From NCBI RefSeq assembly GCF_054482525.1, contig NZ_CM137006.1: 64,000 bases of DNA; one strand, given 5' to 3'. A program made the translations under genes and the position numbers. Each line of letters starts with the position of its first letter. Within the stretch, counting starts at the first letter, position 1. The notes under the pieces are model-generated. The model searched no databases. It saw only the letters and a program-made list of their open reading frames with translations, and had not been told where the DNA came from. Shown here in pieces: positions 3,896 through 53,293 of this stretch.

Positions 3896-4588
3896 GCTGT
3901 TCTTATTATTCCCTGGGGACTACGGGCACAGAGGTTAACTTTCTGTTACCTGGAGACGTCGGGATTTCCTTCCTCCGGTCTGCTTGCGGGTCAGACAGCG
4001 TCCTTTCTATAACTGCGCGTCATGCAAAACACTGCTTCCAGATGCGAAAACGACACGTTACAACGCTGGGTGGCTCGGGATTGCAGGGTGTTCCGGAGAC
4101 CTGGCGGCAGTATAGGCCGTTCACAAAATCATTACAATTAACCTACATATAGTTTGTCGGGTTTTATCCTGAACAGTGATCCAGGTCACGATAACAACAT
4201 TTATTTAATTTTTAATCATCTAATTTGACAATCATTCAACAAAGTTGTTACAAACATTACCAGGAAAAGCATATAATGCGTAAAAGTTATGAAGTCGGTA
4301 TTTCACCTAAGATTAACTTATGTAACAGTGTGGAAGTATTGACCAATTCATTCGGGACAGTTATTAGTGGTAGACAAGTTTAATAATTCGGATTGCTAAG
4401 TACTTGATTCGCCATTTATTCGTCATCAATGGATCCTTTACCTGCAAGCGCCCAGAGCTCTGTACCCAGGTTTTCCCCTCTTTCGCAGAGCGGCGAGCCA
4501 AATAACAAACGGGTAAAGCCAGGTTGATGTGCGAAGGCAAATTTAAGTTCCGGCAGTCTTACGCAATAAGGCGCTAAGGAGACCTTAA
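3896..4588. promoter_or_regulatory. Divergent gltA / sdhCDAB promoter and control region
   Basis: AT-rich ~690-bp non-coding interval between divergent start codons; this is a well-studied control region in E. coli, but no individual binding sites were mapped here. Confidence 0.6.
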
Positions 4589-33303: not shown

Positions 33304-33313
33304 GGCCTGAATT

Positions 33314-33413
<100 letters not shown>

Positions 33414-40776: not shown

Positions 40777-42441
40777 TTACTCGCCTACTTTCGCCCAGGT
40801 ATCACGCAGCCCAACGGTGCGGTTAAATACCGGTTTTTCCGCCGTAGAATGGCGGCTGTCGAGGCAGAAATAACCTTCACGCTCAAACTGGAATGCTTTA
40901 CCCGCTACCGCGTCTTTCAGAGACGGTTCAGCAAAGCCCTGTTTGATCACCAGCGATTCCGGGTTAATCACCGACAGGAAATCATCCGCAGCACCTGGGT
41001 TCGGCACGCTGAACAGACGATCGTACAGGCGGATTTCAACCGGCAGCGCATGTGCCGCGCTCACCCAGTGAATAACACCTTTGACTTTACGACCATCTGC
41101 CGGATCTTTGCTTAAGGTGTCGGCGTCATAAGTACAGAAGATGGTGGTGATATTGCCTTCGGCATCTTTCTCCACGCGTTCAGCCTTAATGACGTAAGCA
41201 TTACGCAGACGCACTTCTTTACCCAGCACCAGACGTTTGTACTGCTTGTTAGCTTCTTCGCGGAAATCGGCGCGATCGATCCAAATCTCACCGCTAAACG
41301 GCACCTGACGGCTCCCCATTTCCGGTTTGTTCGGATGGTTCGGCATGGTGACCATTTCGCCTTCGCCATGGTAGTTTTCGATAACCAGTTTCACCGGATC
41401 GATAACCGCCATTGCGCGCGGCGCATTTTCGTTGAGATCTTCACGGATGCAGGATTCCAGCGACGCCATTTCAATGGTGTTGTCCTGCTTGGTCACGCCG
41501 ATGCGTTTGCAGAACTCACGAATAGAAGCCGCAGTGTAACCACGACGACGCAGACCGGAAATGGTCGGCATACGTGGGTCATCCCAGCCTTCAACGTGCT
41601 TGTCGGTCACCAGCAGGTTCAGCTTACGCTTGGACATCACGGTGTATTCCAGATTCAGGCGCGAGAATTCGTACTGGCGCGGGTGAACAGGAATGGTGAT
41701 GTTGTCCAGTACCCAGTCGTACAGACGACGGTTGTCCTGGAACTCAAGCGTACACAGAGAGTGCGTAATACCTTCCAGCGCATCGCTGATGCAATGTGTG
41801 AAGTCGTACATCGGGTAGATGCACCACTTGTTGCCAGTCTGGTGGTGTTCAGCAAATTTAATGCGGTACAGCACCGGATCGCGCATTACGATAAATGGCG
41901 ACGCCATGTCGATTTTCGCACGCAGGCAGGCTTTACCTTCTTCAAAACCACCGGCACGCATTTTTTCGAACAGCGCCAGGTTCTCTTCAACGCTGCGGTC
42001 GCGGTACGGGCTGTTTTTACCCGGCTGCGTCAGGGTACCGCGGTATTCGCGGATCTGTTCCGGCGTCAGTTCATCAACGTACGCCAGGCCTTTATTGATC
42101 AGTTCGATCGCATAGGCGTGGAGCTGATCAAAATAATCGGAGGAGTAACGGACGTTACCAGACCAGTGAAAACCTAACCACTCTACGTCGTTTTTGATCG
42201 AATCGACATACTCGATATCTTCTTTTACCGGGTTAGTGTCGTCGAAACGCAGGTTGCACTGGCCTTTATAGTCTTGGGCGATCCCGAAGTTCAGGCAGAT
42301 AGATTTCGCATGGCCAATATGCAGATAGCCATTCGGCTCCGGCGGGAAACGGGTGTGTACTGTGGTGTGCTTACCACTGGCCAGATCTTCATCGATGATC
42401 TGACGAATAAAGTTAGTCGGGCGGGCTTCTGCCTCACTCAT
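40777..42441 (-). CDS. glnS: Glutaminyl-tRNA synthetase
   Basis: 554 aa; class I HIGH motif (HIGHAKS) and MSK motif. Confidence 0.97.
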
Positions 42442-42604
42442 CGTGGATTCCTCAAAGCGTAAACAACGTATAACGGCGTATGATCTTATAAGCGGGACAG
42501 GCTGACAACTGTTAGTTAGTGAAAATCGAAAATCTCACTGAGATTATGGGGATGATTGATGAAAAAAAAAGCGGCAGAGAAGATCTCCACCGCTTATCAT
42601 TGTT

Positions 42605-50881: not shown

Positions 50882-50890
50882 GAAATGCGA

Positions 50891-50920
50891 AACAGCCCCG
50901 GTGAAATCCGGGGCTGTTTC
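50891..50920 (+). terminator. asnB rho-independent terminator
   Basis: aacagccccggtgaaatccggggctgttt. Confidence 0.6.
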
Positions 50921-51192
50921 AGTTATTGTGCTGCTTGTTGATTCTGATATGCAGTAAGGAAATGTTCCGGGTTTGCCACATCACTGTTTGACAACTCATC
51001 ACTGTAGGCCAGTATTTCATAGATTAATTTCCCACCACTATTGTTGAATTCCGAATTTCATCCTGTATGACAAAAGAATGGCTGTAGGGTGGGGAAAAAA
51101 CACAAAGTAAACAATAATTGACGAATATAGCGCCACGCTGTTCGCAACCTAACCAAACAGTCACTTTCGAGCAATTTTCCTTGAAAAAGAGG

Positions 51193-51221
51193 TTGACGCT
51201 GCAAGGCTCTATACGCATAAT
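51193..51221 (+). promoter_or_regulatory. Sigma70 promoter of the tRNA operon
   Basis: -35 TTGACG, 17-bp spacer, -10 CATAAT, then a GC-rich discriminator (gcgccccgc) typical of stringently controlled stable-RNA promoters. Confidence 0.65.
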
Positions 51222-51260
51222 GCGCCCCGCAACGCCGATAAGGTATCGCGAAAAAAAGAT

Positions 51261-51337
51261 GGCTACGTAGCTCAGTTGGTTAGAGCACATCACTCATAAT
51301 GATGGGGTCACAGGTTCGAATCCCGTCGTAGCCACCA
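51261..51337 (+). tRNA. metT: tRNA-Met (elongator, anticodon CAU)
   Basis: 77-nt GGCUACGUAGCUCAGUUGGUUAGAGCACAUCACUCAUAAUGAUGGGGUCACAGGUUCGAAUCCCGUCGUAGCCACCA with encoded CCA. Confidence 0.9.
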
Positions 51338-51345
51338 TCTTTTTT

Positions 51346-51430
51346 GCGGGAGTGGCGAAATTGGTAGACGCACCAGATTTAGGTTCTGGCGCCGCAAGGT
51401 GTGCGAGTTCAAGTCTCGCCTCCCGCACCA
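51346..51430 (+). tRNA. leuW: tRNA-Leu (anticodon UAG)
   Basis: 85-nt class II tRNA with long variable arm, ending CACCA. Confidence 0.85.
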
Positions 51431-51453
51431 TTCACCAGAAAGCGTTGTACGGA

Positions 51454-51528
51454 TGGGGTATCGCCAAGCGGTAAGGCACCGGTTTTTGATACCGGCATTC
51501 CCTGGTTCGAATCCAGGTACCCCAGCCA
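51454..51528 (+). tRNA. glnU: tRNA-Gln (anticodon UUG)
   Basis: 75-nt UGGGGUAUCGCCAAGCGGUAAGGCACCGGUUUUUGAUACCGG...CCAGCCA. Confidence 0.9.
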
Positions 51529-51562
51529 TCTTCTTCGAGTAAGCGGTTCACCGCCCGGTTAT

Positions 51563-51637
51563 TGGGGTATCGCCAAGCGGTAAGGCACCGGTTTTTGATA
51601 CCGGCATTCCCTGGTTCGAATCCAGGTACCCCAGCCA
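51563..51637 (+). tRNA. glnW: tRNA-Gln (anticodon UUG)
   Basis: Identical copy of the preceding tRNA-Gln. Confidence 0.9.
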
Positions 51638-51652
51638 TCGAAGAAACAATCT

Positions 51653-51729
51653 GGCTACGTAGCTCAGTTGGTTAGAGCACATCACTCATAATGATGGGGT
51701 CACAGGTTCGAATCCCGTCGTAGCCACCA
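51653..51729 (+). tRNA. metU: tRNA-Met (elongator, anticodon CAU)
   Basis: Identical copy of the first tRNA-Met. Confidence 0.9.
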
Positions 51730-51777
51730 AATTCTGAATGTGTCGAATATGTTCGGCAAATTCAAAAACCAATTTGT

Positions 51778-51852
51778 TGGGGTATCGCCAAGCGGTAAGG
51801 CACCGGATTCTGATTCCGGCATTCCGAGGTTCGAATCCTCGTACCCCAGCCA
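51778..51852 (+). tRNA. glnV: tRNA-Gln (anticodon CUG)
   Basis: 75-nt; anticodon loop GGAUUCUGAUUCC. Confidence 0.9.
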
Positions 51853-51889
51853 ATTTATTCAAGACGCTTACCTTGTAAGTGCACCCAGT

Positions 51890-51964
51890 TGGGGTATCGC
51901 CAAGCGGTAAGGCACCGGATTCTGATTCCGGCATTCCGAGGTTCGAATCCTCGTACCCCAGCCA
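51890..51964 (+). tRNA. glnX: tRNA-Gln (anticodon CUG)
   Basis: Identical copy of the preceding CUG tRNA-Gln. Confidence 0.9.
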
Positions 51965-51969
51965 CATTA

Positions 51970-51996
51970 AAAAAGCTCGCTTCGGCGAGCTTTTTG
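51970..51996 (+). terminator. tRNA operon rho-independent terminator
   Basis: aaaagctcgcttcggcgagcttttt. Confidence 0.75.
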
Positions 51997-52053
51997 CTTT
52001 TCTGCGTATATTCAATGCCGAATGCGATGTTGACTCGTCTTATCCTTCAAAGT

Positions 52054-52087
52054 CGGATGCGACGCTGCCGCGTCTTATCCGACCTAC
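52054..52087. repeat. REP element
   Basis: cggatgcgacgctgccgcgtcttatccgacctac. Confidence 0.7.
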
Positions 52088-52117
52088 GGTTGGCATGCAT
52101 CCAGCAATGTTGTGAGG

Positions 52118-53293
52118 CTACAACCCTAACGCATATTTCAGCGCCTGACGTTTCAACATGCCAGCACGCTCCGCCGCCATCAAACCAAGATTACGCACAA
52201 AACGCAGTGGTGGCAGATTATTGCTGAATCCGGCATAGAACAGATCCATACCGCTCTGCATAATGAAGTTATCCGCCATGCGCCGCATCTGGTAACGCTT
52301 GAGGATCGGATAACTGGCCCACGCTTCGCCACGGCTGCGAGCGTTGACCAGAACGTCAATCAGGGCATCGACATCACGATAACCAAGATTCACCCCCTGC
52401 CCCGCCAGCGGATGGATGGTATGCGCGGCATCGCCCACCAGCGCAAGCCCCGGCTGCACATACTGCAACGCATGGCGGCGCGTCAGCGGAAAAGCGCCAG
52501 CGGCAAGCGGTGTTACATACCCAAGACGCGACGGGAAATGCTTCGCGATTTCCGCCTGTAACTGCGCCATATTCATATTCTGCAACTGGCGAATGCGTGC
52601 CGGAGAGTCATACCACACCAGCGATGCCCAGTTATCAAACAACGGCAGAAACGCACGAGGTCCATCCGGGGTAAATTGCTGCCAGGTGCTGTCGCCGGGA
52701 TCGTTCTCACACTGTACGCTAATCAACATGCACGACTGCGCATACTGCCAGGCATGAACGCCAATTCCCGCCATCTGCCGCACCTGCGAATTTGCGCCGT
52801 CGGCACCAATCACCAGCTTCGCGCGGATCGTTTCACCGCCCTTCAGTTCCAGCTCCTGAAGATCATCATGGCGATGCAGCGCAATCAGCGAGGTTGGCAC
52901 ACGTAACGTTACTTTCGGATGCGCTTCCAGCGCCTGCCACAACGCCTGTTGCAGGACAGTGTTTTCCACCATATAGCCAAGCAGCGGTAGCTTAAGTTCA
53001 GCGGCGTCAAACACCACATGCGCCGTTTCCCACTCCCACGTTTCCAGCCTTCGATAAGGATGGCAACGCATGGCCTGTACCGCGTCCCAGACACCTAAAC
53101 CTTTAAGCAGAGACACCGACGCGGCGCTGATCGCTGAGATCCGCACGTCCGGTTGGCTGTCAGCGATAAACGGTGCAGGTTCTGCGTGCTCGATCACCGT
53201 TACCGAAAATCCGTGCTGTGCCAGCCCCAGCGCCAGTGCGCCGCCGACCATTCCTCCGCCGACAATGGCAATTTCCGTTGGTTGATTTGTCAT
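52118..53293 (-). CDS. ubiF: Ubiquinone biosynthesis FAD-dependent hydroxylase
   Basis: 391 aa from MTNQPTEIAIVGGGMVGGALALGL (FAD-binding fold). Confidence 0.9.
   Translation of the reverse strand: MTNQPTEIAIVGGGMVGGALALGLAQHGFSVTVIEHAEPAPFIADSQPDVRISAISAASVSLLKGLGVWDAVQAMRCHPYRRLETWEWETAHVVFDAAELKLPLLGYMVENTVLQQALWQALEAHPKVTLRVPTSLIALHRHDDLQELELKGGETIRAKLVIGADGANSQVRQMAGIGVHAWQYAQSCMLISVQCENDPGDSTWQQFTPDGPRAFLPLFDNWASLVWYDSPARIRQLQNMNMAQLQAEIAKHFPSRLGYVTPLAAGAFPLTRRHALQYVQPGLALVGDAAHTIHPLAGQGVNLGYRDVDALIDVLVNARSRGEAWASYPILKRYQMRRMADNFIMQSGMDLFYAGFSNNLPPLRFVRNLGLMAAERAGMLKRQALKYALGL

Follow-up and report, generated by a model that had tools for sequence, protein, structure and literature searches.

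In the glyW-cysT-leuZ, argX-hisR-leuT-proM, valV-valW and secG-leuU operons of Escherichia coli, as in the metT operon, several tRNAs are encoded per promoter and terminator, and the transcripts are likewise matured by endonucleases and then by 3′ exonucleases. The first description of the metT operon is that of Nakajima, Ozeki and Shimura (1981, Cell 23:239). Its transcript was followed in K-12 by Mohanty and Kushner with nine probes (PMC2241853). In their northern blots, the full-length transcript comprised the 5′ leader, the seven tRNAs and the terminator. RNase E takes off the Rho-independent terminator and contributes to the separation of the distal tRNAs, whereas the upstream tRNAs are released by RNase P cuts at their 5′ ends; the 3′ ends are finished by RNases T, PH and D (PMC2241853). 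The same study showed that RNase P is inhibited by a retained terminator. In the glyW and argX transcripts, separation of the tRNAs depends on RNase E, whereas in the metT transcript RNase E mainly removes the terminator and RNase P separates the upstream tRNAs (PMC2241853). The metT operon is already known and ordinary: its sequence dates from 1981, its processing was worked out in 2007-2008, and the annotation of every E. coli genome includes it.

The DNA analyzed here (the window) is a stretch of 64,000 nucleotides. A first-pass annotation of the window had read seven tRNA genes in the order Met-Leu-Gln-Gln-Met-Gln-Gln within about 700 bp and had named them the metT-leuW-glnUW-metU-glnVX operon. 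ARAGORN, which had been proposed as a check, called seven tRNA genes with the anticodons that the annotation gave. All seven are on the plus strand at 51261-51964 (704 bp in total), and they are the whole ARAGORN yield of the 64-kb window. The same seven tRNAs were matched by Rfam RF00005 with scores of 57.6-71.1 bits (gathering threshold, 29) and E-values of 1e-10 to 1e-14. In ARAGORN, in Rfam and in the K-12 annotation, the array order is Met(CAU), Leu(UAG), two Gln(UUG), Met(CAU) and two Gln(CUG), all on one strand. The seven genes are as follows.

51261-51337, + strand: metT, elongator tRNA-Met (CAU), 77 nt, CCA encoded (ARAGORN, Rfam, identity with K-12)
51346-51430, + strand: leuW, tRNA-Leu(UAG) (tRNA-Leu3), 85 nt, CCA encoded (ARAGORN, Rfam)
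51454-51528, + strand: glnU, tRNA-Gln(UUG), 75 nt (ARAGORN, Rfam)
51563-51637, + strand: glnW, tRNA-Gln(UUG), identical to glnU in sequence (ARAGORN, Rfam)
51653-51729, + strand: metU, elongator tRNA-Met (CAU), identical to metT in sequence (ARAGORN, Rfam)
51778-51852, + strand: glnV, tRNA-Gln(CUG), anticodon wild type (ARAGORN, Rfam)
51890-51964, + strand: glnX, tRNA-Gln(CUG), identical to glnV in sequence, anticodon wild type (ARAGORN)

The operon name given by the first-pass annotation was correct. In a base-by-base alignment, every tRNA base is the same as in the metT operon of K-12 MG1655, and the gene order, the anticodons, the promoter hexamers, the discriminator and the terminator are also shared. 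The flanking genes are asnB and ubiF, as in K-12; these flanks were taken from the K-12 annotation and from an annotated record with 100% identity to the window over 1401 bases. Only four small spacer differences from K-12 were found: the A-run in the leader has one A fewer in the window, the metT-leuW spacer has one T fewer, and the metU-glnV spacer has one substitution and one extra A. The flanks are about 96.6% identical to those of K-12, and thus the source is a non-K-12 strain. A 1401-nt query found 100% identity in nine complete genomes including PCN033 and SCU-102, and the window is collinear with SCU-102. On sequence grounds, we assign the region to E. coli.

The anticodon CAU is common to elongator tRNA-Met, initiator tRNA-fMet and lysidine-modified tRNA-Ile2, and ARAGORN cannot separate the three. 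Therefore, the products of metT and metU could in principle be initiator tRNA or tRNA-Ile2. However, their sequences are those of the K-12 elongator tRNA-Met genes metT and metU, and their products are handled as tRNA-Met in PMC2241853. Both genes possess a G1-C72 Watson-Crick pair rather than the C1xA72 mismatch of the initiator, and their anticodon stem (CATCA/TGATG) lacks three consecutive G-C pairs. Because of the G1-C72 pair and the absence of a GGG/CCC run in the anticodon stem, the CAU tRNAs are non-initiator tRNAs. Together, the sequence features and the identity with K-12 rule out initiator tRNA and tRNA-Ile2, to which we give virtually no probability, and by these features the two CAU tRNAs are classed as elongator tRNA-Met. 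For the glutamine tRNAs, glnV and glnU differ at seven positions, one of which is the first anticodon base. The remaining six fall into three pairs, located in the anticodon stem and the T stem. These paired changes look compensatory, as expected for two functional isoacceptors. A 3′ CCA is encoded in all seven tRNA genes.

The first-pass annotation had placed the cluster under one promoter with a GC-rich discriminator and one terminator. The region 50900-52300 was scanned for both signals, and a single motif match of each kind was obtained. The elements outside the tRNA genes are as follows.

51193-51198 and 51216-51221, + strand: promoter-like site, -35 TTGACG and -10 CATAAT separated by a 17-nt spacer (consensus scan)
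51222-51228, + strand: GC-rich discriminator GCGCCCC, directly after the -10 hexamer (sequence)
51229-51260, + strand: 5′ leader of about 32 nt, including the A-run GAAAAAAAGAT; its start is set from the position of the -10 hexamer
51970-52005, + strand: Rho-independent terminator, AAAAAGCTCGC-TTCG-GCGAGCTTTTT followed by GCTTTTCTGC (scan and fold)

The promoter hexamers match the consensus at 10 of 12 positions, and TTGACG-17-CATAAT is the only promoter-like site in 50900-52300. The scan by itself is not significant, because 1.5 sites are expected in shuffled sequences against the one found. The weight of the promoter assignment is carried by position, conservation and literature rather than by the scan score. 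In an RNase P mutant, a species of about 125 nt that consists of the 5′ leader and metT accumulates (PMC2241853). Its size fits a leader of about 32 nt and a start a few bases past the -10 hexamer, near 51228. The discriminator GCGCCCC suggests stringent and growth-rate control, because it resembles those of rRNA and tRNA promoters; in a limited collection of literature, we found no paper in which the response of this promoter to ppGpp or its stringent control was tested. At the other end of the cluster, the hairpin at 51970-51995 has a folding energy of -17.9 kcal/mol (z = -4.2), and none of 200 shuffled sequences folds as well. Together with its T-rich tail, this hairpin is the only co-oriented terminator-like site in 50900-52300. 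The A-run on its 5′ side would let the hairpin also serve the convergent ubiF gene. As motif matches, one promoter-like site and one co-oriented terminator-like site thus bracket the cluster. The first-pass annotation had placed the operon at 51193-51996, bounds that correspond exactly to the -35 hexamer and the terminator hairpin.

The cluster might instead be divided into two or more transcription units; a second promoter before metU, for example, would place its two halves under separate regulation. In favor of this idea, metU and glnV are separated by a long, AT-rich spacer of 48 nt, and an intermediate that contains metU, glnV and glnX exists (PMC2241853). In that study, however, the metU-glnV-glnX species arises from an RNase P cut at the 5′ end of metU, and the full-length seven-tRNA transcript is seen with both the leader probe and the terminator probe. 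Moreover, a second promoter-like site was not found in 50900-52300. We therefore regard separate transcription units as very improbable. In the single operon, which we prefer, one sigma-70 promoter with a GC-rich discriminator would produce a single transcript of about 770 nt, which would carry the seven tRNAs and the Rho-independent terminator. As in the published K-12 experiments, RNase E would act first, taking off the terminator and separating the distal tRNAs. Then RNase P would cut at each tRNA 5′ end, and RNases T, PH and D would trim the 3′ ends to the encoded CCA. Co-transcription and processing by RNase E and RNase P in the source strain are assumed from the sequence identity to K-12 in all of these elements.

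To place the operon among E. coli genomes, the 811-nt operon was compared with 5426 complete genomes. It is present at a coverage of at least 80% in 5355 of them and at an identity of at least 99% in 5299. Single-gene queries in about 5420 genomes gave a median of four places per genome for tRNA-Gln, two for elongator tRNA-Met and one for leuW. These medians equal the content of the operon. Thus, all genes for tRNA-Gln, elongator tRNA-Met and tRNA-Leu(UAG) in E. coli genomes appear to lie in the operon, which would be the sole source of these three tRNA types. Mohanty and Kushner also describe leuW as unique to the metT operon (PMC2241853). The operon would accordingly supply the cell with tRNA-Gln (both isoacceptors), elongator tRNA-Met and tRNA-Leu(UAG). 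For annotation, its value is that the window contains the wild-type source of all of these tRNAs.

We also searched for the operon on plasmids. This possibility was rejected, because the 35 matches in PLSDB are mislabeled chromosomes, large chromosome fragments or distant single-tRNA matches. One E. coli record of 28.8 kb filed as a plasmid (CP043024.1, L017) is a fragment with many errors. It includes kdpE as well, and only four distorted tRNAs were called in it by ARAGORN.

Copy number varies in rare genomes. In MDR_56 and A1.S1.65, exactly one 112-bp glnV/glnX unit is lost. In AVS0790, both Gln pairs are down to single copies. In AVS0935, a truncated glnV is followed by a duplicated spacer. 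Some of these variants could be assembly collapses. In a further assembly, CEA224S, all seven tRNAs are missing (position -1 of metT through A76 of glnX), and there is no copy elsewhere. Its other tRNA operons are intact. The idea that CEA224S had been stripped of all tRNAs was rejected, because the lysT-valT cluster is intact. The loss is most likely an artefact or the result of an incomplete deposit.

The first-pass annotation had described the Gln(UUG) pair, the Gln(CUG) pair and the two Met(CAU) copies as identical, had stated that repetition extends to the spacers in front of the second Met and second Gln(UUG) genes, and had described the layout as that of an internal tandem duplication. 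The first of these statements is exact: direct comparison gave 0 differences between metT and metU, between glnU and glnW, and between glnV and glnX. The repetition of the spacers did not hold. When the upstream sequences were anchored at the tRNA 5′ ends, those of metT and metU matched at 9 of 15 positions (nominal p of about 0.02, not robust over 11 tests) and those of glnU and glnW at 5 of 23 positions (p = 0.69). By local alignment against shuffled sequences, no spacer pair was significantly alike: the best raw p value of 21 comparisons was 0.03, and it came from two A-runs. Spacer homology was accordingly rejected as evidence of duplication, since nothing was significant against the shuffles. 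The repeat units appear to be essentially the tRNA bodies only and not the spacers. The support that the spacers lend to a tandem duplication is weak.

The arrangement was compared in six genomes including E. coli; the non-E. coli genomes are chromosomes that are filed as plasmids in PLSDB. The clusters of the other species are as follows.

Klebsiella aerogenes and Klebsiella pneumoniae: same seven-gene order as E. coli, between asnB and ubiF
Yersinia pseudotuberculosis: Met-Leu-Gln(UUG)x2-Met-Gln(CUG), between asnB and ubiF
Proteus mirabilis: Met-Leu-Gln(UUG)x2-Met-Gln(UUG)-Leu, flanks unannotated
Aeromonas caviae: Met-Gln(UUG)x3-Met-Gln(UUG)-Met-Leu, flanks unannotated

The Klebsiella and Yersinia clusters occupy the same asnB-ubiF slot as the operon in the window. 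In all four genera, a Met gene comes first and the cluster is built of Met, Leu(UAG) and Gln genes. In contrast to the window, the Yersinia cluster has a single Gln(CUG) gene; the Proteus cluster has one more Gln(UUG) gene, one more Leu(UAG) gene and no Gln(CUG) gene at the locus; and the Aeromonas cluster has three Met, four Gln(UUG) and one Leu gene. These arrangements bear on the age of the copies. Because the copies are identical at every base, they might be recent tandem duplications in the E. coli lineage, the identity reflecting youth, as the first-pass annotation with its repeated spacers implies, and the weak likeness of the 15 nt upstream of metT and metU points in the same direction. 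However, the same duplicated arrangement is found in Klebsiella, and its Met-Leu-Gln-Gln-Met part is common to Yersinia and Proteus. Furthermore, a recent duplication should have copied the spacers too, and these are without significant similarity. Recent duplication is therefore largely refuted by the arrangement common to several genera, and we consider it highly unlikely. The duplicated array is instead older than the divergence of these genera, and its age accounts for the lost resemblance of the spacers.

Copies within a genome were then compared with copies between genomes. The Met copies have 0 differences within each of the six genomes and 1-8 differences between species (0 between the two Klebsiella species). 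Position 16 of both Met copies, for instance, is T in E. coli and C in Klebsiella. The Gln(UUG) pair has 0 differences within E. coli, Klebsiella and Yersinia and eight between E. coli and Yersinia; both Yersinia copies differ from E. coli at the same eight positions. The three Gln copies of Proteus differ from one another by 1-3 positions, and one Aeromonas copy differs by four, which shows that homogenization is incomplete in these two genera. Copies that are identical within species and different between species point to concerted evolution of an old array. In a limited collection of literature, nothing specific was found on concerted evolution of E. coli tRNA genes.

Because tRNA sequences are strongly constrained, purifying selection alone might keep the copies identical, with no gene conversion or exchange. 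The leuW and Gln(CUG) genes, which barely vary between genera (0-2 differences), would agree with this idea. However, lineage-specific substitutions are common to all copies in a genome, and selection alone would need the same changes to arise independently in each copy. Furthermore, the exact repeat-unit deletions found in rare genomes are evidence that recombination between the copies occurs. We therefore consider selection alone unlikely. In the concerted evolution that we favor, the tRNA bodies of an old tandem array would have been homogenized, by gene conversion or unequal exchange, and held by purifying selection while the spacers diverged, and the repeats would occasionally recombine so that exact repeat units are deleted. 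The mechanism of homogenization, gene conversion or unequal exchange, is one that we infer from the six genomes only. Taken as a whole, we are almost certain of the explanation as a single seven-tRNA metT operon with K-12-type processing, in which an old array is kept identical by homogenization and selection. Nothing that contradicts the identification of the metT operon was found.

The first-pass annotation had called this operon the locus of the amber suppressor supE (glnV) and, because the CUG anticodon is wild type, had stated that no suppressor is present. The anticodons of glnV and glnX are indeed both CTG, and the supE-type CTA is not present in the window. As compared with supE44 (glnX44, formerly glnV44), the window has the same locus and the same tRNA-Gln(CUG) body but CTG in both copies. 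A query that bears CTA has an exact match in 155 of 5423 genomes. The 60 matches listed are all named K-12 laboratory lines, among them C600, DH5alpha, DH1, J53, NCM3722 and RR1, or records of about K-12 size. In four sequenced strains (C600, DH5alpha, NCM3722 and TUM22775), CTA lies in the seventh, promoter-distal gene, which corresponds to glnX of MG1655, and not in glnV. The supE44 mutation was reassigned from glnV to glnX by Singaravelan et al. in 2010, as cited in PMC4444293 and PMC11148124, and the four strains agree with this. Thus, the supE44 mutation is physically in glnX, and "supE (glnV)" is a traditional label, which is right for the locus and names the wrong copy. In the genomes that carry it, the suppressor gene is left unannotated by PGAP and is called tRNA-Pyl by ARAGORN. 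Two useful by-products of the comparison are therefore that supE44 is placed in glnX and that standard pipelines are seen to drop or mislabel the suppressor gene.

The question of a suppressor had been raised because of an in-frame TAG in rhs in the same window. This TAG is present at 21262-21260 on the minus strand, as codon 1172 of an RHS core frame of 1391 codons. A 98%-identical relative has CTG (Leu) at this position. The TAG is rare: the exact 61-mer that contains it was found in only 2 of 5426 genomes, PCN033 and SCU-102. A supE tRNA at this codon would put Gln where relatives have Leu. With both anticodons wild type, the rhs TAG is unreadable by any supE-type suppressor from the metT-operon locus. 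Other amber suppressor genes are located elsewhere in the E. coli genome, and therefore the statement that no suppressor is present holds for the metT-operon locus and the window only.

An inverted repeat lies around metT. The segments 51246-51262 and 51335-51351 form 15 of 17 possible pairs, in which the metT leader GCGAAAAAAAGAT pairs with the metT-leuW spacer and the first bases of leuW (ATCTTTTTTGCGGGA). The pairing is present in the minimum-free-energy fold of the pre-metT region. That this complementarity is functional seems quite unlikely to us. In the helix, which would have metT inside it and a U-run behind it, G1 and G2 would pair with C75 and C74. If functional, it could determine in which order or how fast RNase P cuts, or it could serve as a weak internal terminator, so that the output of metT is uncoupled from that of the downstream tRNAs. 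Such a role of a leader/spacer helix is not described for the metT operon in the literature examined. The inverted-repeat motif is conserved across E. coli, Klebsiella, Yersinia and Proteus. For the A-run in the leader and the T-run in the spacer, E. coli strains have the lengths (A,T) of (7,6), (8,7), (7,7), (9,6) and (8,8); Klebsiella has (7,6) and (6,6), Yersinia has (6,5) and Proteus has (7,7). Strict covariation of the two runs was rejected, because their lengths are only loosely correlated, as expected from homopolymer slippage.

The seven-tRNA metT operon (metT-leuW-glnUW-metU-glnVX) varies in gene content among the compared E. coli assemblies. CEA224S (NZ_CP166080.1), an assembly labeled complete, has none of the seven tRNAs; the missing stretch begins at metT position -1 and ends with A76 in glnX (near position 4090 of the compared locus), while the operon promoter, leader and terminator are retained. 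In the rest of this assembly, no match to tRNA-Gln, elongator tRNA-Met or leuW was found; its remaining tRNA operons are intact. Taken as it stands, the loss of the seven tRNAs in CEA224S is biologically implausible. Copy-number variants of the operon were also observed. One 112-bp glnV/glnX unit is exactly lost in both MDR_56 and A1.S1.65, both Gln pairs are collapsed in AVS0790 to give the order Met-Leu-Gln-Met-Gln, and AVS0935 carries a truncated glnV together with a duplicated spacer. Furthermore, leuW is absent from 10 genomes in which the Met and Gln genes are retained.

The CTA anticodon of the amber suppressor allele supE44 is located in the seventh gene, glnX, in TUM22775, C600, DH5alpha and NCM3722. 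Its position in these strains is as follows.

Locus positions 901-975 or 1302-1376 (L008-L011, the loci of these four strains): glnX with the CTA anticodon (supE44)

Of the 155 genomes that carry this CTA gene, the 60 listed have no PGAP annotation for it, and ARAGORN names the CTA-bearing glnX tRNA-Pyl. The window itself contains an in-frame TAG at 21260-21262, which is codon 1172 of an RHS core frame of 1391 codons (24775-20600, minus strand). This TAG is replaced by CTG (Leu), two base changes apart, in a relative with 98% identity. Of 5426 complete E. coli genomes, just 2 (PCN033 and SCU-102) contain an exact match to the 61-mer spanning the TAG.

We also considered whether the operon is carried by plasmids. 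Every whole-operon carrier among the records filed as plasmids (PLSDB H176-H187 and CP043024.1) proved to be a mislabeled chromosome or a large chromosome fragment, and this candidate was rejected. CP043024.1 (28.8 kb) is chromosomal DNA rich in errors.

The 5′ leader of metT (51246-51262) is complementary to 51335-51351, which comprises the metT-leuW spacer and bases 1-6 of leuW, with 15 of 17 positions paired. Klebsiella, Yersinia and Proteus also retain this complementary leader and spacer motif. Run lengths range from 6 to 9 for the A-run of the leader and from 5 to 8 for the T-run of the spacer, and the two are only loosely correlated.

Downstream, the interval that separates the operon terminator from ubiF, a convergent gene, holds the following pair.

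52011-52095: two tandem 35-nt REP-like elements

Their sequences are TTCAATGCCGAATGCGATGTTGACTCGTCTTATCC and TTCAAAGTCGGATGCGACGCTGCCGCGTCTTATCC, followed by GACCTAC, and they are present in K-12 as well. Upstream, the interval from asnB to the promoter is about 430 bp longer in some E. coli strains (window 50883-51192 versus AVS0790 279-1020), and the extra segment holds an annotated 438-nt hypothetical ORF on the minus strand (WP_000943484.1); both the window and K-12 lack this segment and its ORF. The glutamine-tRNA ligase gene glnS, placed from the annotation of a relative (L003), lies at about 40780-42445 on the minus strand, approximately 9 kb upstream of the operon with all four tRNA-Gln genes.

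Over the whole window, 13 of 15 8-kb windows show negative GC skew on the plus strand. Read alongside the K-12 coordinates, this skew suggests head-on transcription of the highly expressed operon relative to replication. Beyond the tRNAs, the sole Rfam match in the window is the following small RNA.

62423-62585, plus strand: sroC sRNA (Rfam RF00369, 174.8 bits)

Finally, the kdpE-pgm interval (about 33313-33348) is approximately 610-650 bp shorter than that of strain WP4-S18-ESBL-07, in which the stretch missing from the window bears a 495-bp hypothetical ORF.
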